Origin: Acidobacteriota bacterium
Lineage (GTDB): Bacteria; Acidobacteriota; Terriglobia; Terriglobales; SCQP01
DNA: 64,000 nucleotides
Assembly: GCA_027315185.1 (NCBI GenBank)
Contig: DAHUYO010000006.1
Span: 395-64,394 of the forward strand
Direction of reading: 5' to 3'
Shown: positions 3,696-58,151 of the stretch, piece by piece
Layout of the letters: every line of letters begins with the position of its first letter
Numbering within the stretch: the first letter of the stretch is position 1
Translations under genes and position numbers: made by a program
Notes under the pieces: generated by a model
The model's input: only the letters and a program-made list of their open reading frames with translations
What the model was told of the DNA's origin: nothing
The model's database searches: none

Positions 3696-3913
3696 GACTG
3701 CCGATTCTCGTGCTTCGCGTGCCGGCTGTCAAGCGCAGGGCGGGTAGGGCGCCAGCGGCCAAACGGATAGACGTTCGTCGCGCGTCCTGTCGCGGGGCTG
3801 GGGCCCGCGACAATCATTGCTTTGCCACACGAGCCGGCGTGGCGCGGTGGCGCGCGCACTTGCTGACGCCTCGAACCCGTCTCCCGGCGTGCCGCTTCGG
3901 GCGGCGCCACGAT

Positions 3914-4993: not shown

Positions 4994-5126
4994 GCAGGCA
5001 TTCTAGGTCGGCTCCCCCGCGCCGCCAACCCCGTAATCGCGCAAAAACTTGGCTTGCTGCGCCGCCGGAGCCGACAATTCCGTCGGCGGCTAGGAACAAG
5101 AGCCCGGCTGGCGCGTATTTAGATTT

Positions 5127-40617: not shown

Positions 40618-40647
40618 TTGACATCATCGCAGTCATGTTTTTATCAT
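40618..40647 (+). promoter_or_regulatory. Sigma70-type promoter candidate for hsp20: TTGACA-N18-TATCAT
   Basis: TTGACA at 40618-40623 and TATCAT at 40642-40647, in a conspicuously AT-rich island (about 40520-40680). GGAGG at 40673-77 precedes the ATG at 40684. Confidence 0.4.
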
Positions 40648-40683
40648 TCACTTGTAGTCAGATTATCACTTGGAGGAACCGCC

Positions 40684-41097
40684 ATGACCACTTTGCTCAA
40701 TCTGGATTTTCCCTTTACCGCTCTGGATGGACTGTTTGCTCCCCGGCTTCGCCCCGAGACGGCGACGATGGAATGGACGCCACGGACGGCGATCCACGAA
40801 GGCGAGCACGAGTTCACGCTGGAGTTGGATGTGCCCGGAGTGCAGCAACAAGACATCGAGTTGCAGGTGGAACAAAACCAGCTGACGATCCGCGGCGAGC
40901 GCAAGCCCTCGGCGGCGCTGGACAGCTACCGACGGGTCGAGCCCAGCTTTGGGACGTTCAGCCGCACATTCGCGCTGCCGGATTCGGTGAACAAGGACGC
41001 GATCTCGGCGAAGTTGGAAGCCGGCGTGCTGCGCGTCACGTTGCCGCAACGGGAGGAGACCAAGCCGCGGCGCATCGAAGTGAAGGCCAGCGCCTGA
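40684..41097 (+). CDS. Hsp20/alpha-crystallin small heat-shock protein
   Basis: 'WTPRTAIHEGEHEFTLELDVPGVQQQDIELQVEQNQLTIRGER...FGTFSRTFALPDSVNKDAISAKLEAGVLRVTLPQ' is a canonical ACD. Confidence 0.9.
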   Translation: MTTLLNLDFPFTALDGLFAPRLRPETATMEWTPRTAIHEGEHEFTLELDVPGVQQQDIELQVEQNQLTIRGERKPSAALDSYRRVEPSFGTFSRTFALPDSVNKDAISAKLEAGVLRVTLPQREETKPRRIEVKASA

Positions 41098-41374
41098 ACC
41101 GAGCTTGCGGAACCGGCGCCCGGCTAAACCATGTTTTCCGCACGGGCGCCATCGCCGGGACGAGAACAGCCCGGCCGGTTATGGTCACTCCATCATTCAC
41201 GGCGCGCCGGGGTGCGCGCGGGCGGCGGCAGGCAGCCACCTGCCGCCGTCATTTTTTGTGCGGGCAACCGCCTGCTCCGTTGCCGGGCCGGGGGCAAGCG
41301 ATGCAGGCGTTGCCGCGAGGACCTAGACTCAAGGCAGGGAGGCACGCTCCGCCGGCGCGGGGCGCGAACGCATA

Positions 41375-44035
41375 GTGCCGATTCGTTTTGACAAACTCAC
41401 GGTGAAATCGCAGGAAGCGCTGGAGGCGGCGCGGTCGCTGGCCGCTGAACACGGGCAAGCGGCCATCGAGCCGCTGCATCTGCTGCTGGCTTTGCTGGCC
41501 GACCGGGAAGGCGTGGTGCTGCCGCTGCTGGCGCGTTTGGGCGCCGACGTCCGCGCCATCACCGCCGACGCGGAGAAGGAACTGGCGCGGCGGCCGCAGG
41601 TGCAAGGCGCCAGCGTGGAGCGGGGGCTGAGCCCGGCGCTGGGGCAGGCGCTGGAGGAGGCGTTCCGCCAGGCGGACAAGTTCAAGGACGAATACGTCTC
41701 CGCCGAGCATCTTTTGCTGGGCATGCTGTCGCTGGAGCGGGATGCGGCGGCGGAGGTGCTGGCGCGGCACGGGGTGACCGCGGACCGGGTGTTGCAGGCG
41801 CTGATGGCGATTCGCGGCAGCCAGCGCATCACCGATCCCAACCCCGAGGGGAAGTTCCAGGCGCTGGAACGGTACGCCCGCGACCTGACGGAGGCGGCGC
41901 GGCAGAACAAGCTGGATCCGGTGATCGGCCGCGACGAGGAGATTCGGCGCGTGGTGCAGGTGCTGTCGCGGCGCACCAAGAACAACCCGGTGCTGATCGG
42001 CGAGCCGGGCGTAGGGAAGACCGCCATCGTGGAAGGGCTGGCGCGGCGCATCGTGGCCGGCGACGTGCCGGAGGCGCTGCGGTCGAAGCGGGTGGTGGCG
42101 CTGGACCTGGGGGCGCTGATCGCCGGAGCGAAGTACCGCGGCGAGTTCGAAGACCGGCTTAAGGCGGTGCTGAAGGAGATCGAGGACTCCGGCGGGCAGA
42201 TCATCCTGTTCATTGACGAACTGCACACGCTGGTGGGGGCGGGTGCGGCGGAAGGCTCGATGGACGCCTCCAACATGCTGAAGCCGGCGCTGGCGCGGGG
42301 CGAACTGCGGGCCATCGGCGCCACCACGCTGAACGAATACAAGAAGCACATCGAGAAAGACGCGGCTCTGGAGCGGCGCTTCCAGCCGGTGTTGGTGGGC
42401 GAGCCGACGGTGGAAGACGCCCTGGCGATTCTGCGCGGCTTGAAGGAACGCTACGAGATTCACCATGGCGTGCGCATTCAGGATGCGGCGCTGGTGGCGG
42501 CGGTGCGGCTGTCGCACCGCTACATCGCGGACCGGTTTCTGCCCGACAAGGCGATTGATCTGGTGGACGAAGCGGCGGCGGCGCTGCGCATGCAGCTGGA
42601 TTCGCGCCCGGCGGAGATCGAGGCGCTGGAGCGGCGGCTGACGCAGCTGGAGATCGAGCGGCAGGCGCTGGCCAAGGAGAAAGATCCCGGTGGGGTGGCC
42701 CGGCGGCAGCAGATCGAGGAGGAGATCGCCAATCTGCGGGAGCGCACCGCGGCGCTGACCGCGCGATGGACGGAGGAGAAGAGCCGGATCCAGCGGGTGC
42801 GGGAGGTGAAGCGGCAGCTGGACACGCTGCAAGGCGAGGAGGAGCAGGCGGAGCGGTCCGGCGACCTGAGCCGCGCGGCGGAGCTGCGCTATGGGCGCCG
42901 CGTGCAGCTGGAGCGGGAACTGGCCGCGGCGCAGCAGGCGCTGGAGGCGGCGGAGAGCGGGAAACGGCTGCTGCGGGAGGAAGTGGGCGAAGAGGATATC
43001 GCCCGCGTGGTGGCGAAATGGACCGGCATTCCGGTGAGCAAGATGCTGGAGAGCGAGACGCAAAAGCTGGTGGCGATGGAGGAGCGTCTGCACCATCGCG
43101 TGGTAGGCCAGAACGCCGCCGTTACCAGCGTCAGCGACGCGATTCGCCGCTCCCGCGCCGGGCTGGGCGACCCGCGCCGCCCAATCGGGTCGTTTCTGTT
43201 TCTGGGCCCCACCGGCGTGGGCAAAACGGAGCTGGCGCGCGCGCTGGCGGAGTTTTTGTTCGACGACGAGCACGCCATGATCCGGCTGGACATGAGCGAA
43301 TACATGGAGAAGCATTCGGTCGCCCGGCTGATCGGCGCGCCGCCGGGATATGTCGGCTATGAGGAGGGCGGGCAGCTGACGGAGCGGGTGCGGCGGCGGC
43401 CCTATTCCGTGGTGCTGCTGGATGAGGTGGAGAAGGCGCACGCGGACGTGTTCCACGTCCTGTTGCAGGTGCTCGACGACGGGCGGCTGACCGACGGTCA
43501 GGGGCGGACGGTGGACTTCCGCAACACCGTGGTGATCATGACCTCCAACCTGGGCAGCCAGGCGATCCGCAGCGGCGATTTCGCCAGCGCCGCGGCCGAG
43601 GCGGAGCTGCGGCGGCGCTTGCAGGAGATGCTGCGCAGCCATTTCCGGCCGGAGTTCTTGAACCGGATTGACGACATCATCATCTTCCATCCGCTGGGCC
43701 GGGAGCAGATCGAGGTGATCATTGACCTGCAACTGGAGCACCTGCGCGGGCTGCTGGCGGCGCGGGACATTCAGTTGGTGCTGGCGCCGTCGGCGCGCGA
43801 GCTGATCCTGGCGCAGGGCTACGACCCGGAATACGGGGCACGGCCGTTGAAGCGGGCGTTGCAGCGGCTGGTGCAAAATCCCTTGGCGTCGGCGCTGCTG
43901 AAAGGCGACATCCGGCCGGGCAGCGTGGTCGAGGCGGCAGCGGGCGCGAGCGGCGAACTGGCGTTCCGGACGGCGGCGGCGCAGGAAGCAGCCCCTGCGG
44001 CGGAAGGGGGCAAGCGCGCGGCGCGGCCGAAGTAG
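41375..44035 (+). CDS. clpB: ATP-dependent chaperone/disaggregase ClpB
   Basis: GTG start. Clp_N '[15 protein letters not shown]'. Two AAA+ modules with Walker A 'GEPGVGKT' and 'GPTGVGKT'. Long coiled-coil M-domain between them. Confidence 0.95.
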
Positions 44036-44147: not shown

Positions 44148-44564
44148 CTAGCTCTGTGCGGCCTGAGGCGTGGGATGGCCGCCGTTTGGGCCCGGAACGT
44201 TTGCACACTCGATGATGCGCTCCGGGGCGATATGTCCCTCTTCTAGGGCGGCGCGAATCGCCGCTCGTGGACCGCTGCGGAGAAACTGCAGCCCGAGGAA
44301 GCGCGCCGCACGCACCTGAAGGATCGTCATTCCGGCGCAGCGAGCGTCGCGGATCTTACCAATGGTTTCGATTCCCCAATCGCGGCCAACCGCGACATCG
44401 GGCGTTTGGCTCAGGTGACTGCGCAGCAGCTCGACGGCTGCAACCTGGATGCACATTTCGTATTCCGGGCCGAAACCTCCCATCGCGACCGTCCAGATGG
44501 ATTCGCCGGCGTCCCAGCGGCGCACCTGTTCTGCGGCAGTCTCCGCGGCATCTTCCCAGCCCAC
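44148..44564 (-). CDS. Hypothetical cytoplasmic protein (138 aa)
   Basis: ORF with balanced composition, 60 nt downstream of the large OM gene on the same strand. No recognisable motif. Confidence 0.4.
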   Translation of the reverse strand: MGWEDAAETAAEQVRRWDAGESIWTVAMGGFGPEYEMCIQVAAVELLRSHLSQTPDVAVGRDWGIETIGKIRDARCAGMTILQVRAARFLGLQFLRSGPRAAIRAALEEGHIAPERIIECANVPGPNGGHPTPQAAQS

Positions 44565-44623: not shown

Positions 44624-47593
44624 TTAGCGGTCCGGCTGCTGACCGGTGCGTGCGCGCAATGCGCGCGGCTTCGGGGGCCCGGCGGCGATGACGAAGTGGT
44701 CGCGGCGATTGGACTGCCAGCAGGACGGGGTATTGGCCGCGCAGAACTGCCGGGTCTTGCCGTGGCCGACGGCGCGGATGCGGCTGGCGGCGACGCCCAG
44801 GCGGATGAGGAAAAGCCGGGCGGCATTGGCGCGGCGCTTGCCCACGATCTGGTTGCCGCGAGCGCTACCGCGAGTGTCGCAGTAGCCGGCGACCAGGACC
44901 GGCACCGCAGGATGCGCCAGCAACCAGATGGCGTCGCGGCGCAGCGTACGGCGGGCGACGGCGTTCAAACTGGAGCGATTGAAGGCAAAGTAGATGTCGG
45001 CCACGTGGCGGCGGAACTTCGCGGCGAGCGATACCGGCCGCGCGCTGGTCCGCGACGTTGGCTTCCCCGCCGTGTGCGTGGCCGCCGGGTGTTTGCGCGC
45101 CGGAGTTGCCGGCGCGGGCGGAGGCGGAACGCCGCCGATGGTTTCCGCGGGTTCCACGGTGGTCTGCACAGCCTCGTGGTTCACGGGAACGGTGAGGCGC
45201 AGGGTCAAATCATGAACGGCGCCGCCGCTGGTGACCACGACCGGGGGTAGGGGCGCCGCCAGCCGCGCGCCCGCGGGCGCGGAATCTAGATCCACGACGG
45301 CGCGGTATTCGCCGGGCAGGACGTCCTGGAAGGAAAACCGCCCGTTCGCGTCGGTGAAGGCATAGAGGCCGGCGCCGGCCGGCTTTCCGGCGCGGCGCAG
45401 GCGCAGCTCGAGTCCCGCCAGCGGTTTGCCGTTGGCGCGCACGGCGCCGCTGACCGAGCCGACGACCTGCAAGGGAATGTTGACCCGCGGCGCCTCGGCT
45501 CCCACCTGAATGAGCCGCGGCCGGGCGTCCGGGGCGCTATATGCCGCAGGGAGATGGTTCATCTCCAGCCCGAGCAGATATTGCCCCGCGCGCACGGCGG
45601 GAAACTCGAACCGGCCCTTGGCGTTGGTGACTGTGGTCCGGCCGCTCAAGCTGACCTCGACGCCGGGCACGCCGCTATCGCCCGCGGTCCAGCGGCCGGT
45701 GCCGGCGCGGTCATTGAAGACGATGCCGCTGACGGTGGTGTAGGTCGGGACCAGACGGTCGGCGTCGCCTTCCGGCAAGCCGGCGAGCATCGGCACGCCG
45801 TGGCCCCAATGGATGGTCTTGGTGAGACGGATAAACAGCGTTTGCTGCGAGAGCGCGGGCAGCAGCGGCACCGGCCCGGCGCCCAGACCGACCAGGACCC
45901 GCGCGGGATTGAGCTGGCTGACCGACGAGTTGTGAATCCACTCGCCGCTGAGCGCGAACTGCCAAGGCAGATGCACGGTGGCGAGCAGCATGACGGTGCG
46001 GTAGGTCTCCAGCGAGAGCGCGGTTTGATCCCGCAGGTCCTTGCCCAACTGCGCCGAGCCGGAGAGCGTGAACCATTGGCCGAACTGCAAATTGCCGCCG
46101 ATCTGGCCATTCAACGTGGTGGCGCCGCCGGCGGTCTGCTGCAAGCCGACGATGGCGGAGATGCTGTCGCCGCCGAGCATGCGGTCTTGTTCGAGCTCTT
46201 CGGTATGCACCGTGGAGTTGCCGCTAGGCTGGGTCGAAGTCGAGACCCAATCTTGATAGCGCAAATAGGTGCGGTTGTCGCCATAGGAGCGCCCCGCCTG
46301 GAGTTGCGCCGTGGTCAGGCCCAGGCTGGGGCCTTGCGCGCCGCTCACGGGGGAGATTTGGCCCCGCGTGGCGCTGGCCAGCAGACTGTAGCCGTCGCCG
46401 GGATTGATGCTGACCGCGCCGCTGGTAGTGAAGGCGTCGGAGTTGGCGAAGGGCGAGGTGCCGAGGCCGCCGGCGTGATAATCCGCCAGCGAGGTGGAAA
46501 GGCTCCAGAGCGTGCTGGGATGGAGGTCAATGCTGGCGTAGGCGCCGCTGCGATCGCCGCTGATGACGTTGGCCAAGGGCAGATAATCCGCGCCCTCGCG
46601 CAGGGCGTAGGCCTGAATGTCGAATTTCGGGCGACTGACGATGGGACCAAAATAATAGGAGAGATCGTTCTGGGACTTGGCGCCGGGCGCGGCGGTCTGC
46701 CGTGCGCGGGAAAGAGAGACTTCGCCCAGCCAGTCGGCGTGTTTGCCCAAACGGTAATCGCCGTCCAGATAGAAGTTGTCGGCGCTGGCGGGCGGCTGGC
46801 CGAGCACCGGGGCCAGGAGGCTGGGAGCGGCGAGGCTGCGGGTGCGGAAATACCGCGCCTCCAGCGTCAGCGGGCCGCGGCCGGTCCATAGCAATTGCGC
46901 GCCGCTCAATTCGCTGGGCGAGGAGGTGAAGAACGGCAGGTAGGGGCCCTCCTGGATGAGTTCGCGGCCGGCGAAGGCGGTGAAGCGCAGGCCGGCGAAG
47001 CGATACTCCGCGGCGCCGCCGGAAAGATAGACGTCCGGGGAATAGAGGCTGCCGAAGTGCAGCGGCATGCGATCGGTGGCGAAGTTCAGCGTGCCGGCGC
47101 GCAGGAACCAGCGGCCGCCGGCGAAGGGGAGATTGCGCCAGGCCGCCAGGTTATTGCCGTTTTGCCAGGTGGATCCGTCGGTGGCGGAATCGAAGGAGAG
47201 GGTGAGCAGGCCGTCGGAGCCGAAGCTCTGCTGAAAATTCGCCAGCCAGCCGACTTGGGTTGGGCCGACGCCGGGCGTGCCGGCCACGGCGTTGCCGCTT
47301 TGGCTGAGGACTTCGGTGCCGACCTCGACTTCTCCCGCGTTGGGCTGCTGCGCCCGCGCGGCGCCGGCCAATAACAGCAGCACGGCTGTCGCGGCGAGCC
47401 AGTACCGCGAAACCACCGCCAGCCGCGCGGGCCAGCCGGGGAATGACCGGACGAGCCGTCGTGCGGGGGCAAGCCGCCGCGGCGCAGGGCCGAGCGGCGG
47501 GAGCGACCGGTGCGCGAGTTGGCTATTGCGTGGCTCCATGAGGGGGGGCGGCGGGAGATGCGGCGGAAGCGGCGGCGGCATTGCCGGTTGCAA
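44624..47593 (-). CDS. Large outer-membrane protein: N-terminal beta-barrel-like region + two CarboxypepD_reg-like domains + C-terminal OmpA-like peptidoglycan-binding domain (alternative start 47539)
   Basis: Signal peptide '...YWLAATAVLLLLAGAARAQQ'. Barrel-like alternating segments over ~550 aa. 'VSGIVFNDRAG...TNAKGRFEFPAVRAGQYLL' and 'VSGAVRANGKPLAG...TDANGRFSFQDVLPGEYRAVV'. OmpA_C 'IYFAFNRSSLNAVARRTL...VLVAGYCDTRGSARGNQIVGKRRANAARLFLIRLGV'. Confidence 0.75.
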   Translation of the reverse strand: MQPAMPPPLPPHLPPPPLMEPRNSQLAHRSLPPLGPAPRRLAPARRLVRSFPGWPARLAVVSRYWLAATAVLLLLAGAARAQQPNAGEVEVGTEVLSQSGNAVAGTPGVGPTQVGWLANFQQSFGSDGLLTLSFDSATDGSTWQNGNNLAAWRNLPFAGGRWFLRAGTLNFATDRMPLHFGSLYSPDVYLSGGAAEYRFAGLRFTAFAGRELIQEGPYLPFFTSSPSELSGAQLLWTGRGPLTLEARYFRTRSLAAPSLLAPVLGQPPASADNFYLDGDYRLGKHADWLGEVSLSRARQTAAPGAKSQNDLSYYFGPIVSRPKFDIQAYALREGADYLPLANVISGDRSGAYASIDLHPSTLWSLSTSLADYHAGGLGTSPFANSDAFTTSGAVSINPGDGYSLLASATRGQISPVSGAQGPSLGLTTAQLQAGRSYGDNRTYLRYQDWVSTSTQPSGNSTVHTEELEQDRMLGGDSISAIVGLQQTAGGATTLNGQIGGNLQFGQWFTLSGSAQLGKDLRDQTALSLETYRTVMLLATVHLPWQFALSGEWIHNSSVSQLNPARVLVGLGAGPVPLLPALSQQTLFIRLTKTIHWGHGVPMLAGLPEGDADRLVPTYTTVSGIVFNDRAGTGRWTAGDSGVPGVEVSLSGRTTVTNAKGRFEFPAVRAGQYLLGLEMNHLPAAYSAPDARPRLIQVGAEAPRVNIPLQVVGSVSGAVRANGKPLAGLELRLRRAGKPAGAGLYAFTDANGRFSFQDVLPGEYRAVVDLDSAPAGARLAAPLPPVVVTSGGAVHDLTLRLTVPVNHEAVQTTVEPAETIGGVPPPPAPATPARKHPAATHTAGKPTSRTSARPVSLAAKFRRHVADIYFAFNRSSLNAVARRTLRRDAIWLLAHPAVPVLVAGYCDTRGSARGNQIVGKRRANAARLFLIRLGVAASRIRAVGHGKTRQFCAANTPSCWQSNRRDHFVIAAGPPKPRALRARTGQQPDR

Positions 47594-48473
47594 CGGGGCC
47601 GATCACCACGTTTTTCTCGATTTGCTGAATCGCCGGCAGACCCATTTCGACGCGGGCGCGGAGCTGATAGGCGCCGGGGCCGGGCGGCGATTGCAGCGCG
47701 AAGCGCAGCAGACGCGTCGTCGCGGGCAGCACGACTTGGCTGCCAATGGGAAACGAGGCGATCGGTTGGCCGCCGACGCCGATGAGTTCCGTGGTGCCGC
47801 TGGCGCGGAAAAACGTCGTGCCGGTGTTGGCGATCAGCAGGCGCAGCTGCCAATGATGGCCGGAGCCGGCGGGCGGCGCCAAGGAAATGTCGGCCAACCG
47901 CCCCGCCACCGTGGGATGACCGACAGTGATGTACAGAATGGAGGCCATGCGCACGCGGGTGAAGATCTGGCTTTGGGCGCCCGGGCGCCGCAATGGGGCG
48001 CTGGTGAACAAGATTGAGGTGTTGCAGCCCTGCGCCGACGTTCCGGCGGGAACCTGAATGGTGTAGCGAATGGTCTCGGTTTGCCCCGGCGCGACCACGA
48101 ACTCGGCGGGGTTGATCTGCAGCCAGGCGGCGCAGCCGGCGCTAGCCGCCGGATCGCCGCGCATGGGGAAAATCGGGGTGCCGCGCGGCGACAGGCTCCA
48201 GTCGCTGGTCCGCGCCGTCATCGGCACGGGCACCGTGCCCAAGTTGGAAACATGCGCGGCGTCGGTGAGGGAGCCGCCGGAGGGCAAGTGGTAGGCCATG
48301 CGCAGCGGGTCCACGCCCAATTGCACCGCCTGTGCCGCCGCCGTCGCGGTGAAGGCGCCGAGGCTCGCGCCGATGAGCGCCGCCGCCAGCATCGCGCGGC
48401 GGCCGGGACGGCGGGCGCGGCTACGGCGTGGCCAGGGTGAAAGTGACGGTTTGCGAATAAGTTCCAGGCGCAT
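47523..48473 (-). CDS. Secreted Ig-fold protein, candidate periplasmic pilus chaperone (start 48473 or 48392)
   Basis: Signal 'RRSRARRPGRRAMLAAALIGASLGAFTATAAAQA'. PapD-like layout: 'VQLGVDPLRMAYHLPSGGSLTDAAHVSNLGTVPVPM' then 'LQINPAEFVVAPGQTETIRYTIQVP', with a second beta domain. Sits between the small subunit gene and the OM protein gene. Confidence 0.4.
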   Translation of the reverse strand: MRLELIRKPSLSPWPRRSRARRPGRRAMLAAALIGASLGAFTATAAAQAVQLGVDPLRMAYHLPSGGSLTDAAHVSNLGTVPVPMTARTSDWSLSPRGTPIFPMRGDPAASAGCAAWLQINPAEFVVAPGQTETIRYTIQVPAGTSAQGCNTSILFTSAPLRRPGAQSQIFTRVRMASILYITVGHPTVAGRLADISLAPPAGSGHHWQLRLLIANTGTTFFRASGTTELIGVGGQPIASFPIGSQVVLPATTRLLRFALQSPPGPGAYQLRARVEMGLPAIQQIEKNVVIGPVATGNAAAASAASPAAPPHGATQ

Positions 48474-49038
48474 AGTTCCAGGAATCGTGAAACACGAGGT
48501 TGCACGTGACGTTGGCGGAGAATAAAAAGCCCGTGCCCTCGGTGCCGCTGGCCGTGGTGGCGGCGGTGGCGGAGAGGGCGGTCGAGCCATTGGGAGTGGT
48601 GATGGTTCCGTTGTTGCCAGCGACGGTGCCCGTGCTGGTCCAGGTGACGGCGCTGACGGGAATGGCGGTCGGTCCGCCGGTGAAATTGGGAGCGTTGGCC
48701 GCCAGGCTGAGGGTCCAGTTGGTGTTGGCGGCGGGACGGAAGATCATCAGACGGACCGCGACCGCTGCCGAGCCGGGCACCAGCGGCTGGCTCGCGGGAT
48801 CGGTGGCGTTGAAGCTGACCGCATTCGGGGTGACGAAGATACGGCCTCGGCCGCCCCTGCCGCCACCGCGCAACATGCGCGCCGCCCGCGCCGCGGTGGC
48901 TGCTGCGACGCCGTGCGATGCGGCCGTCGCGCCGCCGGGGCGGACCCCCGGACCAGCCCGGCCGCCGCGCTGCGCCAGCGCCGGAACAGCCAGCGCCAGG
49001 GCGCAGAGAACGGCGAGATGGAGGCGGGGGATGGACAT
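48421..49038 (-). CDS. Secreted pilin-like subunit P3 (Gly/Arg-rich linker + beta domain ending ...PGTYSQTVTFTLATP)
   Basis: Signal 'MSIPRLHLAVLCALALAVPALAQ'. The C-terminal motif is shared with P1 and P2. Confidence 0.5.
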   Translation of the reverse strand: MSIPRLHLAVLCALALAVPALAQRGGRAGPGVRPGGATAASHGVAAATAARAARMLRGGGRGGRGRIFVTPNAVSFNATDPASQPLVPGSAAVAVRLMIFRPAANTNWTLSLAANAPNFTGGPTAIPVSAVTWTSTGTVAGNNGTITTPNGSTALSATAATTASGTEGTGFLFSANVTCNLVFHDSWNYAPGTYSQTVTFTLATP

Positions 49039-49170
49039 GACAAAACGCTGGGCTCCGGCGGGGCGCAACCTGCCCGCCGGAGCTGGCGCAGCCGCGCTAC
49101 AGCGGGCCGCGGCTGAACTTGGGTGCAGGTTCGGGATCTTGGTTGATGCGGGTCGCCTCTCCTGGTTGAA

Positions 49171-49186
49171 AGCAATTTTCTTGCCA
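49171..49186 (-). promoter_or_regulatory. Sigma54 (-24/-12) promoter TGGCAAGAAAATTGCT in front of the P3-chaperone-OM protein genes
   Basis: The minus-strand read matches TGGCAC-N5-TTGCW at 15 of 16 defined/spaced positions, with correct GG...GC spacing. It lies about 130 nt upstream of the ATG at 49038. Confidence 0.6.
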
Positions 49187-49194
49187 AAACGAGC

Positions 49195-49220
49195 GCCGCG
49201 CCGCCCGTGGGCGGCGCGGC
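49195..49220 (-). terminator. Intrinsic terminator after P1: GCCGCGCCGCC-loop-GGCGGCGCGGC followed by GCTCGTTTT
   Basis: GC-rich stem of 11-12 bp, 18 nt downstream of the P1 stop. The T-run merges into the -24 element of the next promoter. Confidence 0.5.
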
Positions 49221-49237
49221 CGGATGGCGGACGCTGG

Positions 49238-49777
49238 TTAGCTGACCGCCAAGGTGTAGGTGAGCGTGGTGGTGTAGGTGTCCGCCGCGAAGTTGCCGCT
49301 GGACACGGTGTAGGTGATGTTGAACTGCTGGTTCTGCGCGTGCGTGGAAGCCGCGTTGGTGAACAACGTGGCGCCCGCCGAGGCCAGAGCCGCGCTGCCG
49401 ACCAGGGTTCCGCTGCTAACGCTGCCGGCGGTGCTCAGAATCATGTCCGCATCCGGGATCACGTTGGCGGCGTTGCTACCCACCAAGGCGTCGGCACCAT
49501 TGCTGGAGGTGACGGTGATGCTGACCCCCGAGGTGCTGGTGCTGCCGGCGCGGTAGGAGAAGTTGACCTGCGTGGCGCCCGCGGCAGAAGCCCAAGGGCC
49601 GAACGTCGGACCGGTGAGGTTGATGGTGCTGGCGCTGTTGACCACGCTCAGCGTGCCGGCTACGTTCAGGTTCAACGCCAGGTTGGTGGTGCCCGTGGTT
49701 TGGGCCGAGAGCGGCGCGGCGGCCAAGCCTGCCATCACCACCAGGGCCAGAGTCGGAAGAAGCGATTTCAGTTTCAT
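49238..49777 (-). CDS. Secreted pilin-like subunit P1 (major-subunit candidate)
   Basis: Signal 'MKLKSLLPTLALVVMAGLAAAPLSAQT'. Ser/Thr/Ala/Gly-rich beta protein ending 'AADTYTTTLTYTLAVS'. The ATG at 49831 lies upstream of the predicted sigma54 transcription start, so 49777 is preferred. Confidence 0.55.
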   Translation of the reverse strand: MKLKSLLPTLALVVMAGLAAAPLSAQTTGTTNLALNLNVAGTLSVVNSASTINLTGPTFGPWASAAGATQVNFSYRAGSTSTSGVSITVTSSNGADALVGSNAANVIPDADMILSTAGSVSSGTLVGSAALASAGATLFTNAASTHAQNQQFNITYTVSSGNFAADTYTTTLTYTLAVS

Positions 49778-49834
49778 ATCCAGTGTCCGTTTCCGCTGGT
49801 CCATCATCTCGGCCCAGCCTTTGCTGGTCATAGG

Positions 49835-49850
49835 GGCAACCCTGGGGCCA
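49835..49850 (-). promoter_or_regulatory. Sigma54 promoter candidate TGGCCCCAGGGTTGCC in front of P1
   Basis: GG and GC dinucleotides are at exactly the consensus spacing and TTGC is intact. It lies ~60 nt upstream of the ATG at 49777. Confidence 0.55.
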
Positions 49851-50611
49851 AAGCCGCCGCCATTCTTGGCCCGGCTGCAACCTTAGGCGTTTCTAAGGCT
49901 TGTAGGGGAGGGACAGGAAAAACCCTGTACTTGCCACGCCGCCGCAGAGCGCCAAAAAACGTCGCTGCGTGGACGGCTCATGGCCTGTACTGCCTGGGTC
50001 AGCCGCCGGGGCGGCGGCGGTGCGGGCATCGTTGGCGATTTGCCCACGCAGATCGGGAGTGGCGGGCCCGGGCGGGAAATGCACAGGGTTTTGCCCGCCC
50101 GCACCGGCAGGGCGGGTAACACGACGTGCCCAGGCCGCGGGGACAGGGCCGGGGGCCCGGCCGCGGCATGCGGCGCCAGCGCACGGCTGACATCCGGCGG
50201 GGATCCCGCATCGCGCTGGCGGTGACCGGCGAGAACGCCCATCTCACCGTCACCGCGCCGAGCGCACCCGTAGGGTACCCGTCCCCGGCTGCCCAGCAAA
50301 GCTGCCGTCCCGGCCGGCCCCTCCCACTTTCTTCGCGCTGGGCGGGCGGCAGCAGAAACAAGCTCTCGTCTGGCGCGAGGGAGGCGGGCAGGGAGGCGAG
50401 CGTCCCGCTGGCCGTCAGGACGCGCAGGTAGCCACGGTGGCGCGGGATTTGTCATAGTGGGGCTAGCGCCGCCAGAGGAGCGCCGCGAAATCCGCGCCGT
50501 AATCGCCGCAGGCGCGGTTCGACACTGTTCTCTCGCGGCTTTTCCAGCGCACCGTTCGCATTCCGTCCCCACCGCCCCTGGCCGCCACCATCCCGTACCG
50601 CCGATCCCGCC

Positions 50612-52009
50612 ATGGCCGCATCTGCCCCTTCGACCGCAGCCTTATCCGCGCCGGCGGCGGTGCGTCTGCTGGCGGTGGATGACGAGCCGGAAATCTTGGC
50701 ATTGATCGCCGCCACGCTGGAGCCGATGACCGCCTGCGGCGATTTGGAAATCACCTCCGCCGCCGACGGCGCGGCCGCCTGGGAGGCGTTCGTCCGCCTG
50801 CGGCCGGGCATCGTTTTATTGGATCTGCGCCTGCCCGACGCCAACGGCATGGAGCTGCTGGCGCGCATGCTGGCCGCAGATCCCGGCGTCCATGTCCTGT
50901 TGCTGACCGGCTATTACTCCACCGCTTCCGCGGTGGAGGCCATCCAGCAGGGCGCCAGTGATTATCTGGAAAAGCCCTTTTCCGTGGAGCGCCTGCGCGC
51001 CGCCGTCGGCGTGCTGGTGGAGGAAGCGGGCCGGCGCCGGCAGAGCGGGGAGTTGCAGCGCGAGCTGGCGGCGCACGCCGAGGTGGACGGCATGATCGCC
51101 TCCGGCCCGGCGATGCAGGAGGTGCTGGCCGCCATCCGCCGCTACGGGCCGCATTTCAGCGCGGTGTTGGTGGAGGGGCCGACCGGCGCGGGCAAGGAGC
51201 TGGTGGCGCGGGCGCTGCACCGTCATGCCGGCCGCCGCGGGCCGATGGTGGTCGCCAACTGCTCCGCCATCGTCGAGAGCCTGTTCGAAGCAGAGATGTT
51301 CGGCCACGTCAAGGGCGCCTTCACCGGCGCCAGCAGCGACCGGGTGGGGCTGTTTGAAGCGGCCCACCAAGGCACGTTGTTTTTGGATGAGATCGGCGAC
51401 CTGCCGCTGCCCATGCAGGCCAAACTGCTGCGCGCCATTCAGGAACGCCAGGTACTGCGCGTCGGTTCGGTGACGCCGCGCGCGGTGGACGTGCGCATCA
51501 TCGCCGCCACGCATCACGAATTGTCGGCGCTGACGCGTGCCGGCCGGTTCCGCGAGGATTTGTACTACCGCCTGGCCGCGCTGCGCATCACCGTGCCGCC
51601 GCTGGCCGAGCGGCGCGAGGATTTGCCGCTGCTGACGCGGCATTTTTTGGCCCGCTACTCCGCCGAGTACGGCAAGCCGCTGCGCGGTCTGACCCGCCGC
51701 GCGCAGCTGGCCGTGGCGCGCTATGCCTGGCCGGGCAATATTCGCGAGTTGGAGAACGCGCTGGCCGCCGCCGCGCTGCACGCCGCCGCCGATTTCGTGG
51801 ACGTGGACGATCTGCCGGAGGCGGTGCGTGCGCCCGCGCCGCCCGGCGCCGATGCCGCCACGCCGCTGCTGACGCTGGCCGAGATGGAGCGCCGCTATGC
51901 GCGGCAAGCCGTGGCGGCTATGAACGGGAATAAGGTGCAGGCCGCCGCCGCTTTGGGCATTAGCCGCGCCACGCTGTACCGGCTGCTGCGATCTCCGTCT
52001 GCAACCTAG
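50612..52009 (+). CDS. Sigma54-dependent response regulator (NtrC family: REC-AAA+-Fis HTH)
   Basis: REC '[11 protein letters not shown]...[16 protein letters not shown]'. Walker A 'GPTGAGKE'. Intact 'GAFTGA' sigma54-contact loop. '[11 protein letters not shown]'. C-terminal '[16 protein letters not shown]'. Confidence 0.9.
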
Positions 52010-52146
52010 CAATCGTAGGACGGCCGTCCCGCCTGCCAATTTCTCCGCTGCGACCGCGCCACTGGGGTAGCCGTCACGGCTGCCGGGACCCGTCCGGCTG
52101 CCGATGCGCGTCCGGGATGCTGAGATCCCAACGCCGGCGGCCGGCG

Positions 52147-52695
52147 TTAGCTGACGGCCAGGGTGTAGGTGAGCGTGACGCTTTGACTCGGGGCCTGAGC
52201 CGACGCTTGGCTGGCCGGCGCGGAATAGCGGATTAGGAAGCTTTGCCCCAGGCCGTGGGCTTCCGGGCCGCCGCGCCAGAGGACCACGGCGCCGGTGGCC
52301 GGGGATACATATTGCTGGCTGGCGGTGAAGGCGCCGAGCTGCGGCGCGGGACCGGAGAGCGATAGAAGAATGCCGGCTTGGCTGGCCGCGGTAGGCAACG
52401 CCGCAACCGTTAAGGCGGCGCCGCCGAACTGGCTGGCGCGATAGCTGAGCGTGACCATGGACGCGCCGCCGGGCGTAGCCGAAATTGCCTGGCCCGACGC
52501 GGCCGTGGCGCCGTTCAAATTGGCGACCTGCAACACCGCCGCCGGACGCAGCGTCATCGCCAACGGGGTGGAACGATTTTGGGCGCGGGCGGCGGGGGTT
52601 ATCGCCGCCAACGCCAGCAACGCGGCCGGAGCCGCAAACCTCGAGTTGAACCGCGAGGAAGTGAATAACGAACGGAAGCGGAAACGGACGAACAT
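52147..52695 (-). CDS. Secreted pilin-like subunit P2
   Basis: The ATG at 52695 is preceded by GGAGGAG. Signal '...FAAPAALLALAAITPAARAQ'. The C-terminus 'SQSVTLTYTLAVS' is identical in its last 8 residues to P1. Confidence 0.5.
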   Translation of the reverse strand: MFVRFRFRSLFTSSRFNSRFAAPAALLALAAITPAARAQNRSTPLAMTLRPAAVLQVANLNGATAASGQAISATPGGASMVTLSYRASQFGGAALTVAALPTAASQAGILLSLSGPAPQLGAFTASQQYVSPATGAVVLWRGGPEAHGLGQSFLIRYSAPASQASAQAPSQSVTLTYTLAVS

Positions 52696-52723
52696 TGGTG
52701 CTCCTCCGTAGTGCAGACGGAGC

Positions 52724-52740
52724 GCCAAAACGCCGTGCCA
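52724..52740 (-). promoter_or_regulatory. Weak sigma54 promoter candidate TGGCACGGCGTTTTGGC upstream of P2 (alternative: AGGCTTAGAAATCGCT at 52794-52809)
   Basis: Perfect -24 TGGCAC, but the -12 GC is displaced by 2 nt. The alternative has correct spacing but a degenerate -24. Confidence 0.3.
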
Positions 52741-53013
52741 GCGCTTCATCCGGGGGTTGGCATCTATTTGATATTGCAGGGGCTTATTTAGCAAGCGATT
52801 TCTAAGCCTGGGGCCCGGCTAACGGTCTGTCTCAGCAATGAGACGCCGGCTAGAATCGAGACACTTCACCGGCGCTTCCAGAACCGGTGAATAGCCCTGG
52901 CAGCGGTGCATCGTCGGGGCGGATCCGCGTTTAAGGCAAGGGGATGGCCGCGCGGCTCTTTGGTTCACCCGGCAGAGCCGGCGGTCCGTGCCGGCACCCG
53001 CGGTTCGCGGACG

Positions 53014-53890: not shown

Positions 53891-54403
53891 TTATTTCTGG
53901 ATTTCGTATAAGAGGTTGGGGCTGCCGTCCGGCGTCGGGCGGTCAATCTCGCCCGCCAGCTTCGCCCCGATCTTCTCCAGCGCGCGGCGCGAGCGCAGAT
54001 TGTTGGCGCCCACGGTGAACACCACGCGGTCCACCGAGCGCAGCGCATGCGCCAACAGCAGCCGCTTCATCTCGCCGTTGTAGCGGCCGCCCCAATACGC
54101 CCGCTGGAGAAACGTGTAGCCGATCTCGATCTCGCTTGGCGGCCCCGGCCGGTAGTCGTGATAACGCGTGCTGCCGATGATCTTGCCGCTGGCCCGCTCC
54201 AAGACCGCGAAGGCGCCGCCGGAGGCGATGCCGCTGTCGAAATATCTGCGGAATGCCGCAGGCAAAAACCGCGTCGGTTCGGGATGCTGCTGCCAAATCA
54301 AGGGATCGCCGGCGGCGGCATGCAGCGCCGCGTAGTCCGTTGGCCGCAGCGGCCGCAGAATCACCAGCTCGCCGGTGAGCGTGGGCTGAAGATCGAACCC
54401 CAT
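53891..54403 (-). CDS. GNAT-family N-acetyltransferase
   Basis: 170 aa. 'LVILRPLRPTDYAALH...IGSTRYH...IEIGYTFLQRAYWGGRYNGEMKRLLLAHAL...RVVFTVGANNLRSRRALEKIGA' shows typical RimJ/RimL-like motifs A and B. Confidence 0.8.
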   Translation of the reverse strand: MGFDLQPTLTGELVILRPLRPTDYAALHAAAGDPLIWQQHPEPTRFLPAAFRRYFDSGIASGGAFAVLERASGKIIGSTRYHDYRPGPPSEIEIGYTFLQRAYWGGRYNGEMKRLLLAHALRSVDRVVFTVGANNLRSRRALEKIGAKLAGEIDRPTPDGSPNLLYEIQK

Positions 54404-54659
54404 CCGCGCCAGGCTAGCACGCTGCGGCGCGGTCGGGTTGGTTGTTCCGGACCGCCGTGTCGGGCGGTACGCCGCCGTGCTTGCGGTCGAGTTGGCGTCC
54501 GAAGAACGGCGGCGGCGGCCTAGATCGGTCAGCGCTCGTCGAGGGCGCGCGTCCCACTGGCCAACAACCCGGATTTTGCCGTAAACTCGAACCAGTGCCA
54601 ATGCGCCCCTCGGGGCGCGATCCCGTCTGGATCGCGGCGGCATGCGCCGCCATCAGCGT

Positions 54660-55107: not shown

Positions 55108-55473
55108 GTGCAGCCCATGGCCGACGGGCCGGAGCCCAAGAAAATCCCGCTGATCTTCTTCCGCACGACGGCGGGGAGTGAGCCTGTCCGGGAGTGGCTG
55201 AAAGGGCTGGATGAATCCGAGCGACAGGCAATAGGCGAGGACCTCCTGCGGGCGCAGTGGCGTTGGCCGGTAGGGATGCCGCCGTGCCGTCCAATGGGCA
55301 ACGGCCTCTGGGAGATCCGGACGAACCTGCCCACGAAGAAGACGGCGCGCGTATTGATCTGCCTCTAGCGCGAGCACTTGGTCGCGCTGCCCGGCTTCAT
55401 CAAGAAAACGCACGCGACGCCGGCATCGGATTTGGCAACGGCGCGCAAGCGCCAGAAGGAGTTGGGACGATGA
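55108..55473 (+). pseudogene. HigB/Gp49-like (RelE/ParE superfamily) toxin interrupted by an in-frame TAG at 55366-55368
   Basis: 'IFFRTTAGSEPVREWLKGLDESERQAIGEDLL...GNGLWEIRTNLPTKKTARVLICL*REHLVALPGFIKKTHATPASDLATARKRQKEL'. The family-typical C-terminal half continues in the same frame after the stop and ends in ATGA coupling to the antitoxin. Confidence 0.7.
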
Positions 55474-55748
55474 GCAAGAAGCATATGGGTTCGAGCGTTG
55501 ATGACTTCCTAAGGGAAGAGGGCATCTTCGAGGAAACGCAGGCGCGGGCGATTAAGGAGGTCGTTGCGTGGCAGCTTGCCGAGGCCATGAAGAAACAGAA
55601 CATCTCGAAGAACAAGATGGCGATGCTCCTCAAGACGAGCCGCACCCAGGTGGACCGGCTGCTCGATCCGAAGAATGACATCACGCTCGGGAGCCTGCAG
55701 AAGGCGGCGGCAATGGTCGGGCGCCGGGTCAGGATCGAATTGGTCTAG
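55470..55748 (+). CDS. XRE/HigA-like HTH antitoxin
   Basis: 92 aa. 'ISKNKMAMLLKTSRTQVDRLLDPKN' is a helix-turn-helix. Its start overlaps the toxin frame's terminal TGA. Confidence 0.8.
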   Translation: MSKKHMGSSVDDFLREEGIFEETQARAIKEVVAWQLAEAMKKQNISKNKMAMLLKTSRTQVDRLLDPKNDITLGSLQKAAAMVGRRVRIELV

Positions 55749-56048: not shown

Positions 56049-58151
56049 ATGATCAAGGCCAAGTGTGGGTTGCTGCTGCTCTCCGTGGCGTTCGCGCCGC
56101 TGCTTCCGGTGACGGCGCAGGCCGCCGTCAAGCCCCATCCGCTGACGCTGAACGATGTGTTTCGCGTGAAGGCCGTCAGCAGCCCGAAGGTGTCGCCGGA
56201 CGGGAAGTGGGTGCTGTATACGGTGCGGACGACGGATTTGAAAAAGGACAAGCGCACCACGACCCTGTGGATGGTGAGCTGGAACGGGAAACAGAACCGC
56301 CAGCTGACCTTTGGCTACGACGGTTCCGTCAGCGCGCCGGCGTGGAGCCCGGACGGGAAGTACATTTCGTTTCTATCCGGCCGGAAGGGCGCGGTGAAGG
56401 GCAAGCAGGTCTGGGTGCTGCCGCGCCGGGGCGGCGAAGCGCGGCAACTGACGCACCTGGCCAAAAAGCAGGGCACGATCCAGGCCTACCGCTGGTCGCC
56501 CAACGGGAAGCGCCTGCTGCTGACGGTGCATGTGGGCCGGGTGGTGAGCGCGAACGCCTTCGACAGCGCGAAGCTGCACAAGTACATTGCGCCGATCGTC
56601 ATCACGCGCTACCTGTTCAAGCAGGACATTCGCGGCTACATCACGGCGTCGTCGCACACGTTTCTGTATCTGTATGACATCGCGACGGGCAAGATGGCGA
56701 AGCTGACGGCCGGCAAGAAGTTCGACGAAAAAGACGGGGCGTGGTCGCCCGATGGGAAGGAGATTGCGTTCATCAGCAATCACACCGCGGAGCCGGAGCG
56801 GAACATCAACACCGACGTTTTCGTGGCGGCGGCGAAGGCGGGGTCGAAGCCGCGGCGGCTGACGCACTACACGGGCGCGGACGTGGGGCCGCTGGCATGG
56901 AGCCCGGACGGGCGCGAGATCGCGTTTTTGCGCGGCGGGCATGTGAAGTACTGGCAATACCAGGAGGACCGGCTGGCGGTGGTCGCGGCCGATGGCAGGG
57001 GGCGCGCCAAGGTGGTGACGGCGGCGTTCGACCGGCCGATTCATGAGCCGCAATGGACGCCGGACGGCAAGCATGTGATTGCGCTGGTGACGGACAACCG
57101 CAACCGCTATCCGGCCAGCATTGACGTCGCGACCGGCGCGGTGACGCGGCTGGTGAAGGCGGAAGGGTCATCGTGGGGCCACTCGGGAAAGGCGGGGCAT
57201 GAGGCGCTGCTGTGGACCACCGACACCAGCCCGAGCGAGTTGTTTGCGCTCAGCCATGGGCGACTGCGGCAGATGACGCACCAGAACGCGAAGTTGCTGC
57301 GGCGTTTGGTGCTGGCCAAGGCGGACAACATGCACGCCATCAGCCAAGACGGCACGCGCGTGTACGGGCTGATCACGCTGCCGGATAAAGCTGGGGCGAA
57401 GAAGCCGTATCCGCTGCTGCTGTGGATCCACGGCGGGCCGCAGGGGCAGGACGCGCACGGGTTTTCGGCTGTGCGGCAGTTGTTCGCGGCGCGCGGCTAC
57501 GCGGTGCTGAACGTGAATTACCGCGGCAGCGACGGCCGCGGGATCGCCTACCAGAAGGCGATCTGGGCGCACTGGGGCGTGGATGAGGTGCAGGACATCG
57601 AGGCGTGCGTCAACCAGGTGATCCGGGAAGGCATCGTGGATCCGAAGCGCATGGGCGTGGGCGGCTGGAGCTACGGCGCCATGACCACGGACTATATGAT
57701 CGCGCACACCAACGAGTTCAAGGCGGCGAGCGCGGGCGCGGGCGTAGGCGATCCGTTCATGCTGTATGGCGTGGACGAGTACGTCAACCAGTACAACTTT
57801 GAGTTGGGTGATCCCTGGACGCACGAGCAGCGGTACATCAGGATCGGCTACCCGTTCTTCCATGCCAACCAGATTCATACGCCGACGCTGTTCATGGGCG
57901 GCACCAGCGATTTCAATGTGCCGGTGGTGGGCGGCGAGCAGATGTATGAGGCGCTGCGCACGCTGCATGTGCCCGCGGTGCTGATTGTCTATCCGCAGCA
58001 GTTCCACGGGTTCACGCGGCCCACCTACATCCGCGACCGCTACCAGTACTGGTTCAATTGGTACGGCAAGTGGGTGCTGGGCCGGCACGTGGCGCTGTCA
58101 TATCGGCCCTGGGCGAAAAAGAAAGGCAAATCGAAAGGGAAGAGGAGCTAG
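56049..58151 (+). CDS. S9-family serine peptidase (beta-propeller + prolyl oligopeptidase/DPP-type catalytic domain)
   Basis: Signal peptide. Repeated 'SPDGK' propeller blades. Catalytic 'GGWSYGAMTT' (GxSxG). C-terminal Asp/His region 'GTSDFNVP...FHGF'. Confidence 0.9.
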   Translation: MIKAKCGLLLLSVAFAPLLPVTAQAAVKPHPLTLNDVFRVKAVSSPKVSPDGKWVLYTVRTTDLKKDKRTTTLWMVSWNGKQNRQLTFGYDGSVSAPAWSPDGKYISFLSGRKGAVKGKQVWVLPRRGGEARQLTHLAKKQGTIQAYRWSPNGKRLLLTVHVGRVVSANAFDSAKLHKYIAPIVITRYLFKQDIRGYITASSHTFLYLYDIATGKMAKLTAGKKFDEKDGAWSPDGKEIAFISNHTAEPERNINTDVFVAAAKAGSKPRRLTHYTGADVGPLAWSPDGREIAFLRGGHVKYWQYQEDRLAVVAADGRGRAKVVTAAFDRPIHEPQWTPDGKHVIALVTDNRNRYPASIDVATGAVTRLVKAEGSSWGHSGKAGHEALLWTTDTSPSELFALSHGRLRQMTHQNAKLLRRLVLAKADNMHAISQDGTRVYGLITLPDKAGAKKPYPLLLWIHGGPQGQDAHGFSAVRQLFAARGYAVLNVNYRGSDGRGIAYQKAIWAHWGVDEVQDIEACVNQVIREGIVDPKRMGVGGWSYGAMTTDYMIAHTNEFKAASAGAGVGDPFMLYGVDEYVNQYNFELGDPWTHEQRYIRIGYPFFHANQIHTPTLFMGGTSDFNVPVVGGEQMYEALRTLHVPAVLIVYPQQFHGFTRPTYIRDRYQYWFNWYGKWVLGRHVALSYRPWAKKKGKSKGKRS

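Follow-up and report, generated by a model that had tools for sequence, protein, structure and literature searches.

A locus in the 64-kb window analysed here (64,000 nucleotides of the Acidobacteriota contig DAHUYO010000006.1, positions 395 to 64,394) probably encodes an undescribed chaperone–usher-like pathway for the assembly of a surface polymer, whose components are orphans at the sequence level and which would be switched on by an NtrC-type activator via sigma-54. According to the listing of open reading frames (ORFs) and their translations, the minus strand carries, in this order, the gene for a small secreted subunit (P1), a terminator and a -24/-12 promoter, and the genes for a second subunit (P3), a chaperone-like secreted protein of 316 aa (CHAP) and an outer-membrane protein of 971-989 aa (OMP). 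The activator gene lies divergently between P1 and the gene for a third subunit, P2 (Table 1). This order and the divergent activator had been described in an initial annotation made from the sequence alone; the ORFs lie at or near the places given there, and the same gene set in the same order was called independently in GCA_027389415.1 (L020), a genome about 97% identical. In such a pathway, donor strands would complement the subunits and be exchanged, the subunits would pass through the barrel of OMP, and a fibre would form.

The structure of CHAP was modelled with AlphaFold2 on an alignment of nine sequences. Because few homologues were returned by the searches (nine CHAP and six barrel proteins, and seven barrel proteins with a concatenated CHAP+barrel profile), the alignments used for structure prediction were shallow. 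The CHAP model shows a two-lobe beta-sandwich, and its predicted local distance difference test (pLDDT) is above 90 over most of the core, residues 50-295. In a Foldseek search the top match in the Protein Data Bank (PDB) was WxLIP of Enterococcus faecium (9i1y and 9i25, E ~1e-10), followed by CsuC (6fqa and 5d6h), Caf1M, CfaA, SafB, DraB, FimC, CupB2, YadV and EcpB with E values of 1e-9 to 1e-7. Essentially all solved pilus chaperones were among the matches, with template modelling (TM) scores of 0.5-0.6 normalised to the target. A PapD-like two-lobe fold, which had been named initially as a feature to check in this protein, is thus predicted with confidence: the model has the two Ig-like domains of PapD and is matched by the chaperones as well as by WxLIP.

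Two basic residues of CHAP stand out when diverse homologues are compared: Arg58, located in the first strand, never varies, and Arg175, with which strand 175-184 begins, is nearly invariant. This strand is the last one of domain 1 and is preceded by a 16-residue loop (159-174) in which the pLDDT dips to 57. PapD-type chaperones contain an Arg8/Lys112 pair, an F1-G1 loop and the G1 donor strand, and by analogy Arg58/Arg175, loop 159-174 and strand 175-184 of CHAP may be the corresponding elements.

At the sequence level CHAP belongs to no Pfam or NCBIfam family and matches no PDB sequence. PapD_N and PapD_C (PF00345/PF02753) were found neither in nine CHAP homologues nor in nine CHAP+barrel sequences at E values up to 10; the only Pfam families with weak matches among the homologues were OCRL-like_ASH, fn3_5 and WxLIP_PGBD. 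The family is nevertheless large, since 1.84 billion cluster representatives, searched in full with HMMER, contained 9,379 relatives at E <=1e-3, of which 2,971 reached E <=1e-10. A C-terminal membrane helix was detected neither in CHAP nor in its best 149 cluster representatives. Export of CHAP by the Tat pathway was considered and rejected, as the RR motif is not kept in the orthologues. Among the longer members of the family (P0026, P0081 and P0141 with ~550-590 aa, P0100 and P0163 with ~365 aa), some are tandem duplications of the two-domain unit and others have C-terminal TPR repeats. The cluster of P0081 is labelled 'DUF916 domain-containing protein [Bacillota]', and by JGI 'P pilus assembly chaperone PapD'.

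The three small secreted proteins form one family. P1 and P2 align in BLASTP with an E value of 4e-4, P1 and P3 over the C-terminus alone (E 2e-3), and an iterative hidden Markov model (HMM) search over the related loci joined all three, in agreement with the proposal that P2 is a third subunit paralogue. The subunits have Sec signal peptides and no lipobox, consist to 40-56% of Ser, Thr, Ala and Gly and contain 4-10% charged residues (16% in one divergent outlier). Most of them end in the same way, with Gly at position -14, alternating hydrophobic residues, Phe or Tyr at -6 and the terminus two residues past the last strand. The C-terminal sequences AGAYSATVTFTISAS and PGTYSQTVTFTLATP, the latter being that of P3 with Gly at -14 and Phe at -6, can be superimposed residue for residue on those of FimA (PGAANADATFKVQYQ) and YadL (AGKFSAPATFTVTYN) of E. 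coli K-12. At the other end, P1-type subunits carry an alternating segment of the T-L-S-V-T-V type, e.g., TGTTTLSVTVGAEA, which resembles a donor N-terminal extension and may serve as one.

The subunits had been thought to lie outside the SCPU and fimbrial families, and this was borne out: Fimbrial (PF00419), SCPU (PF05229) and WxL (PF13731) gave no match in 28 subunits at E values up to 10, and no relative of the family was present in NCBIfam or among PDB sequences. That the subunits are lipoproteins was rejected, since a consistent lipobox is missing. P3-type proteins (P3 itself and those of loci L005-L013) have two Trp motifs in common, which are conserved and spaced by about 60 residues, first W-x-L/V (NTNWTLSL, STWTLKV) and then DSW-x-Y/F, a pattern reminiscent of the dual WxL motif that gives no Pfam WxL match.

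The third component, OMP, had been taken for a barrel fused to two CarboxypepD_reg domains and an OmpA-type peptidoglycan anchor rather than for a PapC- or CsuD-type usher, and the Pfam domains agree with this description. The OmpA domain (PF00691) scored 52.5 bits against a cut-off of 27.2 and matched Pal/OmpA sequences in the PDB at ~1e-10. Pfam Usher was absent from OMP and from nine diverse CHAP+barrel sequences, as were TonB-dependent receptor and porin families. An AlphaFold2 model calculated with eight sequences (mean pLDDT 60, predicted TM-score 0.39) has 26 long strands in model residues 24-536 without a globular insertion, followed by two beta-sandwich domains. The ten best Foldseek matches to this model are all full-length FimD or PapC, with E values of 2.6e-13 to 1e-10 over ~800 aligned columns, and porins follow from ~3e-7, three to six orders of magnitude behind the ushers; the best TM-score (0.37/0.43) is that of the 26-strand MtrB. 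The initial annotation had asked whether the barrel is a 24-strand usher-like one or a smaller one. It is predicted to be large, and ushers are its best matches; the model has ~26 strands instead of 24 and no visible plug at a pLDDT of 60, so that the strand number and the lack of a plug are uncertain, as the model is weak and the TM-scores to ushers are low. Throughout the barrel family the barrel ends with a conserved strand of the form R(L/V)(T/S)(K/R)x(I/L/F)xWG, in which W and G are invariant. Such a strand is expected of a beta-signal, which suggests that the C-terminal domains are periplasmic and occupy the position of the usher C-terminal domains CTD1 and CTD2.

To determine how far the gene set is conserved, the CHAP alignment was compared with one genome per species, which yielded 14 loci, one of them from Deinococcus and the others from Terriglobales, Bryobacterales and further Acidobacteriota. 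Each of the 13 Acidobacteriota loci that were fetched (24-97% identity) has one or more subunit genes, the CHAP gene and the OMP gene following each other in the same order and on the same strand. Using tblastn, CHAP followed by the barrel was detected in 13/13 of them and the CarboxypepD_reg region in 12, being missing in L012. An iterative HMM search seeded with P1-P3 located one to six tandem subunit genes directly upstream of CHAP (incomplete contigs counted), and in 12 loci the gene immediately before CHAP is a P3-type paralogue. The genes are thus co-conserved across Terriglobales and Bryobacterales, the outcome for which the initial annotation had suggested a survey. All-against-all clustering of the ORFs of the loci revealed no additional conserved gene, so the system appears to consist of subunits, CHAP and OMP. 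The OmpA tail is confined to the closest relatives; it was found by tblastn in L001-L003 and in the alignment in P0010-P0015, and it is absent in P0016. Two loci showed peculiarities of their subunit genes. In L011 (Bryobacterales) an extra divergent subunit-like gene (13480-13953) is located downstream of the barrel gene, as is the case for tip subunits after ushers, and in L008 a frameshifted subunit gene is split over two frames (8866-9459 and 9122-9391).

The presumed regulator is composed of REC, AAA+ and HTH domains (Pfam: Response_reg E 1.6e-23, Sigma54_activat E 1.8e-61, AAA_lid_14 and HTH_8 E 7e-7). With these domains and an intact GAFTGA loop readable in the translation it is an NtrC-type enhancer-binding protein, as had been claimed. 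Its scores are below the cut-offs of all named NCBIfam equivalogs; membership in the PEP-CTERM regulator family in particular was rejected (365 bits, cut-off 502). An orthologue of the activator adjoins the locus in L001, L004 and L020.

Both strands of the window were searched for sigma-54 sites with the pattern TGGCAC-N5-TTGC, allowing one mismatch at most. Altogether, eight sites were found, and we estimate the chance that two of them lie in the correct orientation <=150 nt upstream of subunit genes at P ~4e-4. As annotated initially, -24/-12 promoters precede P1 and P3, each with one mismatch, and P2 has a weak candidate only (TGGCACGGCGTTTTGG), which precedes the ATG at 52695 by ~30 nt and a GGAGGA ribosome-binding site by ~15 nt and has a poor -12 element. 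Between P1 and P3, the terminator and the promoter reported there are both present, and the hairpin is the strongest terminator-like site of the region. The P1 site recurs identically in L001, where a similar P3 site also exists. In L004, whose proteins are 44-56% identical and whose activator gene is likewise adjacent, a TGGCGACGCAGTTGCA site is found ~50 nt upstream of the P1 orthologue. The retention of the P1-type site in so distant a locus argues for the sigma-54 control that had been proposed, and the locus in the window would accordingly depend on sigma-54. In the Bryobacterales loci neither the activator nor -24/-12 sites were found, so that this control seems to belong to the Terriglobales clade and not to the entire system. 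Between the activator gene and P1, ACAGGGTTTT occurs in two exact inverted copies, at 49919-49928 (minus strand) and 50083-50092 (plus strand); there is no third exact copy in the 64 kb, and the two are candidate binding sites for the activator. Elsewhere in the window, a perfect palindrome (TGGCAAAACCATTGCCA, 58739-58755) fits the -24/-12 pattern with one mismatch on both strands.

Table 1. Features of the locus, with positions in the 64-kb window
Feature	Coordinates	Strand	Remarks
OMP, outer-membrane protein	44624..47539	-	ORF reaches 47593; likely start 47539 from orthologue P0010
OmpA-like peptidoglycan-binding domain of OMP, residues 868-957	44723..44992	-	Pfam OmpA E 6.7e-14
Two CarboxypepD_reg/SdrD_B-type beta-sandwich domains of OMP, residues ~623-771	45191..45742	-	Pfam; AlphaFold2 pLDDT ~75-88
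Barrel region of OMP, ORF residues ~84-596	45806..47344	-	~26 predicted transmembrane beta-strands, no Pfam family
CHAP, secreted periplasmic protein	47523..48473	-	Alternative NCBI start 48392
P3, secreted subunit, P3 type	48421..49038	-	Corrected ATG at 49038
Sigma-54-type -24/-12 promoter before P3-CHAP-OMP, TGGCAAGAAAATTGC	49172..49186	-	1 mismatch
Intrinsic terminator after P1, 11-12 G-C pairs then T-rich GCTCGTTTTG	49195..49220	-	Hairpin search
P1, secreted subunit with own promoter and terminator	49238..49777	-	Signal peptide MKLKSLLPTLALVVMAGLAAAPLSAQ
Sigma-54-type -24/-12 promoter before P1, TGGCCCCAGGGTTGC	49836..49850	-	1 mismatch; 59 nt upstream of ATG 49777
Candidate activator-binding region, two exact inverted ACAGGGTTTT copies	49919..50092		Putative function
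NtrC-type enhancer-binding response regulator, 465 aa	50612..52009	+	Pfam; GAFTGA in translation
P2, third secreted subunit paralogue	52147..52695	-	ORF; paralogy; same position in L001, L004, L020
Weaker sigma-54-like site before P2, TGGCACGGCGTTTTGG	52725..52740	-	Perfect -24 element, non-consensus -12 element (without GC)

Overlaps link the genes for P3, CHAP and OMP, for which translational coupling is probable. The OMP gene is present as annotated; its length of 989 aa probably has to be corrected, since the likely start, at 47539 and not at 47593, overlaps the stop of CHAP by 17 nt. Directly downstream of OMP an hsp20–clpB heat-shock pair is encoded (40618-44035), with the same neighbours in L001-L003 and L020; in L020, the GNAT, ClpB and Hsp20 genes flank the locus as in the window. 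An ORF of 138 aa between clpB and the OMP gene (44148-44564, minus strand) belongs to no Pfam family. On the other side, a Gp49/HigB-like toxin ORF overlaps an ORF for an HTH antitoxin-like protein downstream of it (55108-55748), which suggests a toxin–antitoxin pair, and this pair is flanked by genes for a GNAT acetyltransferase (53891-54643) and an S9 peptidase (56049-58151). A histidine kinase gene was not found among these neighbouring genes in the window, as had been noted initially.

If the favoured reading is correct, an unlinked sensor kinase would phosphorylate the REC domain of the activator, which would then open the sigma-54 promoters of P1, of P3-CHAP-OMP and probably of P2. The subunits would be exported by Sec and captured in the periplasm by CHAP with its PapD/WxLIP fold, Arg58 and Arg175 clamping the C-terminal carboxylate of the subunit and the last strand of domain 1, after the flexible loop, completing the subunit beta-sandwich. 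The chaperone–subunit complexes would dock on the two periplasmic beta-sandwich domains of OMP, and the subunits would cross the large barrel and polymerise, with the strand of the chaperone swapped for the N-terminal T-L-S-V-T-V-type segment of the next subunit. In this clade alone, the OmpA tail would fix the platform to the peptidoglycan. P1 is the candidate major subunit: with its own promoter and strong terminator it should be abundant, and this separate transcription suggests a large stoichiometric excess, which is typical of polymers.

Several findings weigh against a chaperone–usher-like pathway. PapD_N/C, Usher, Fimbrial and SCPU were detected neither in the proteins of the window nor in up to 28 relatives. 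Pairwise profile comparison (hhalign) with chaperones, ushers and subunits of the E. coli Fim, Yad and Sfm systems gave probabilities below 7%: 1.7% for CHAP against FimC, YadV and SfmC, 0.6% for the barrel against FimD, HtrE and SfmD, and no similarity of the subunits to ten E. coli fimbrial subunits. The controls FhuA and BamA were equally low in this comparison. In the window, P1 and P2 have no Gly at -14, and a penultimate Tyr, as in classical pilins, is missing from the family as a whole. Confidence in the OMP model is low, with a pLDDT of 30-50 over residues ~100-290 and TM-scores of 0.2-0.38 to ushers, and in this model (pLDDT 60) neither a plug nor an N-terminal domain of the usher type is visible. 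The modelled CHAP fold is at least as close to the Gram-positive WxLIP/DUF916 proteins as to PapD, and WxLIP is thought to be a lasting partner of the proteins it binds and not an assembly chaperone (PMC10599100).

The searches also show how isolated the system is. P1, CHAP and OMP, as well as the subunit, CHAP and CHAP+barrel profiles, found nothing among PDB sequences beyond the matches of the OmpA domain. Pfam and NCBIfam, searched with the window proteins and with alignments of relatives, contained no family for the subunits, CHAP or the barrel, and an exact look-up of P0001 gave no match. Literature searches returned no description of such a system, and a paper on a cyanobacterial tubular pilus proved to be unrelated to the locus. 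The statement that no described pilus system has this architecture stands, since it is described by no family model, solved-structure sequence or paper of the library searched; to the Csu/SCPU (archaic) pili with which the locus had been compared, no specific link was found.

The likeness to WxLIP leads to a different explanation, which we regard as unlikely. The locus would then be the diderm counterpart of WxL/WxLIP modules, with CHAP as the lasting partner of small, non-polymerising envelope proteins which it holds by strand insertion, and OMP, with its OmpA domain, tying the complex to the outer membrane and the peptidoglycan; no fibre would be formed. Indeed, 9i1y and 9i25 are the best Foldseek matches of CHAP, several relatives give sub-threshold matches to WxLIP_PGBD, one related cluster is annotated as DUF916, and OMP has a peptidoglycan-binding domain in this clade. 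Moreover, strand insertion by WxLIP into WxL has been predicted (PMC10599100). A scan of metagenomes with a single distant member of the CHAP family, which gave two loci of which one was informative, also points in this direction. The informative locus (L019; contig FWWL01002612.1, 7217-9069) is low in GC (42%) and Firmicute-like and encodes two proteins: a small secreted one, whose last residues are ...TTTITYTAVQI, and after it a homologue of CHAP that carries a transmembrane helix at its C-terminus and has a charged cytoplasmic tail. Neither protein of this pair reaches a Pfam threshold, and judged from the sequences the arrangement looks WxLIP-like, as a monoderm version of the pair would. 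Against this explanation, CHAP and its best 149 cluster representatives have no membrane anchor, a barrel of ~26 strands is present in every diderm locus whereas the OmpA tail is absent beyond the closest relatives, several tandem subunit paralogues with pilin-like C-termini occur, the subunits have no Pfam WxL match, and the separate promoter and terminator of one subunit point to an excess as in polymers.

A locus in Deinococcus rhizophilus (L014; NZ_JASNGB010000145.1, 1950-7485) resembles the Acidobacteriota loci in layout and speaks for the favoured chaperone–usher-like reading. It contains a subunit-like gene, a CHAP homologue (2847-3788), a second subunit-like gene and a barrel ORF; the first subunit-like protein ends in ...ATLTYTLTS with a short tail and the second in ...FDMTFTALALP. 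The last ORF encodes at least 893 aa, runs off the contig and has N-terminal Ig-like domains, a beta-rich middle part and C-terminal CarboxypepD_reg/SdrD_B domains. Its barrel region shows no sequence similarity to the profile of the Acidobacteria barrels. Together, these relatives outside the Acidobacteriota suggest an old module of a two-domain chaperone-like protein and pilin-like partners, which is held by a membrane anchor in monoderms and combined with a barrel in diderms. As a tentative extension of this idea, about which we have considerable doubt, CHAP, P1-P3 and the barrel could represent a distinct, ancient strand-complementation lineage that bridges WxLIP/DUF916 modules and chaperone–usher pili, and the ~26-strand CarboxypepD_reg barrel of diderms could have been recruited independently as a new class of 'usher'.

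It is quite improbable that the locus is simply an extremely diverged archaic (sigma/Csu-type) chaperone–usher system which works by the ordinary mechanism and is beyond the reach of profile models. There are reports of archaic chaperone–usher systems from non-proteobacterial phyla, Deinococcus-Thermus among them, and Deinococcus does carry a related locus; CsuC is among the best chaperone matches of CHAP (6fqa, 5d6h), ushers are the best matches of OMP, and the gene order is that of fimbrial operons. However, SCPU, PapD and Usher matches are missing at E values up to 10 in the 28 subunits and the nine CHAP+barrel sequences, and the subunit and CHAP+barrel profiles find nothing among the PDB sequences, which include CsuA/B, CsuC and FimD/PapC. 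The OMP model has no visible plug or N-terminal domain, and the C-terminal domains are of the CarboxypepD_reg type and not PapC_C. We consider it very improbable that the locus is a sigma-54-regulated uptake or porin system with the barrel as channel and the small proteins and CHAP as binding factors in the periplasm or on the surface: many outer-membrane transporters contain CarboxypepD_reg domains, nutrient acquisition is frequently controlled by NtrC-type activators, and porins and MtrB stand further down among the Foldseek matches of OMP, but there is no TonB-dependent receptor or porin family match, the small proteins are Ser/Thr/Ala-rich, poorly charged tandem paralogues with pilin-like C-termini, the fold of CHAP fits assembly chaperones, and no transporter or catabolic genes are co-conserved.

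The favoured chaperone–usher-like pathway can be compared with three known systems. With chaperone–usher pili (Fim/Pap, CFA/I, Csu and Caf1) it shares Sec-exported tandem subunits, a two-lobe Ig-like chaperone and a large predicted barrel with two presumably periplasmic beta-sandwich domains, as well as the order subunits–chaperone–barrel with a terminator after the major-subunit gene, as in fim and pap. Also shared are the subunit C-terminus (Gly -14, Phe -6 and a chain that stops directly behind the strand), the conservation of basic residues in both the first and the last strand of domain 1 of the chaperone, and the Foldseek grouping of CHAP with CsuC, Caf1M and FimC and of OMP with FimD and PapC. 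In contrast to these pili, no component has detectable sequence similarity, the barrel is predicted, at low model confidence, with ~26 strands instead of the 24 of ushers and without a visible plug or N-terminal docking domain, the C-terminal domains are of the CarboxypepD_reg/SdrD_B type with an extra OmpA peptidoglycan anchor, the subunits have neither a penultimate Tyr nor a conserved pilin disulfide, and the system is found in the phylum Acidobacteriota under the control of sigma-54 and an enhancer-binding protein. The WxL/WxLIP (DUF916–DUF3324) clusters of Firmicutes share the fold of CHAP, the weak WxLIP_PGBD matches in relatives, and clusters in which a two-domain protein occurs together with beta-rich, small secreted proteins, strand insertion being the predicted way of binding the partner (PMC10599100). 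They differ in that CHAP has no C-terminal membrane helix, the Pfam scores are below the cut-off, the subunits are not WxL-domain proteins, and the host is a diderm in which the outer-membrane barrel is always present. The regulation resembles the sigma-54 control of pilA by PilS–PilR, with a REC–AAA+–HTH GAFTGA activator encoded beside the structural genes and a -24/-12 promoter before the major subunit gene; here, the controlled genes are not type IV pilins and no cognate kinase is adjacent. Taken together, the locus would work like a known kind of machine, yet it fails the sequence tests for membership in the chaperone–usher class and differs from it in usher architecture, anchoring and regulation.

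Chaperone–usher pili are the paradigm of ATP-independent secretion and polymerisation, and they have been catalogued almost entirely with the Pfam models Usher, PapD and Fimbrial, mostly in Proteobacteria. The locus described here shows the same three-part logic with components that escape these models, and it comes from a soil phylum which, though dominant, has been little studied. It suggests an evolutionary connection between the WxLIP modules of Gram-positive bacteria and the pilus chaperones of Gram-negative bacteria, and it offers an usher-like barrel in which no plug is obvious and to which a peptidoglycan anchor is attached. With the defined sigma-54/activator switch, the structure could be induced for microscopy. 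Since the chaperone-like family comprises ~9,400 clusters at 50% identity (E <=1e-3), many systems for the assembly of surface structures may still be unannotated.

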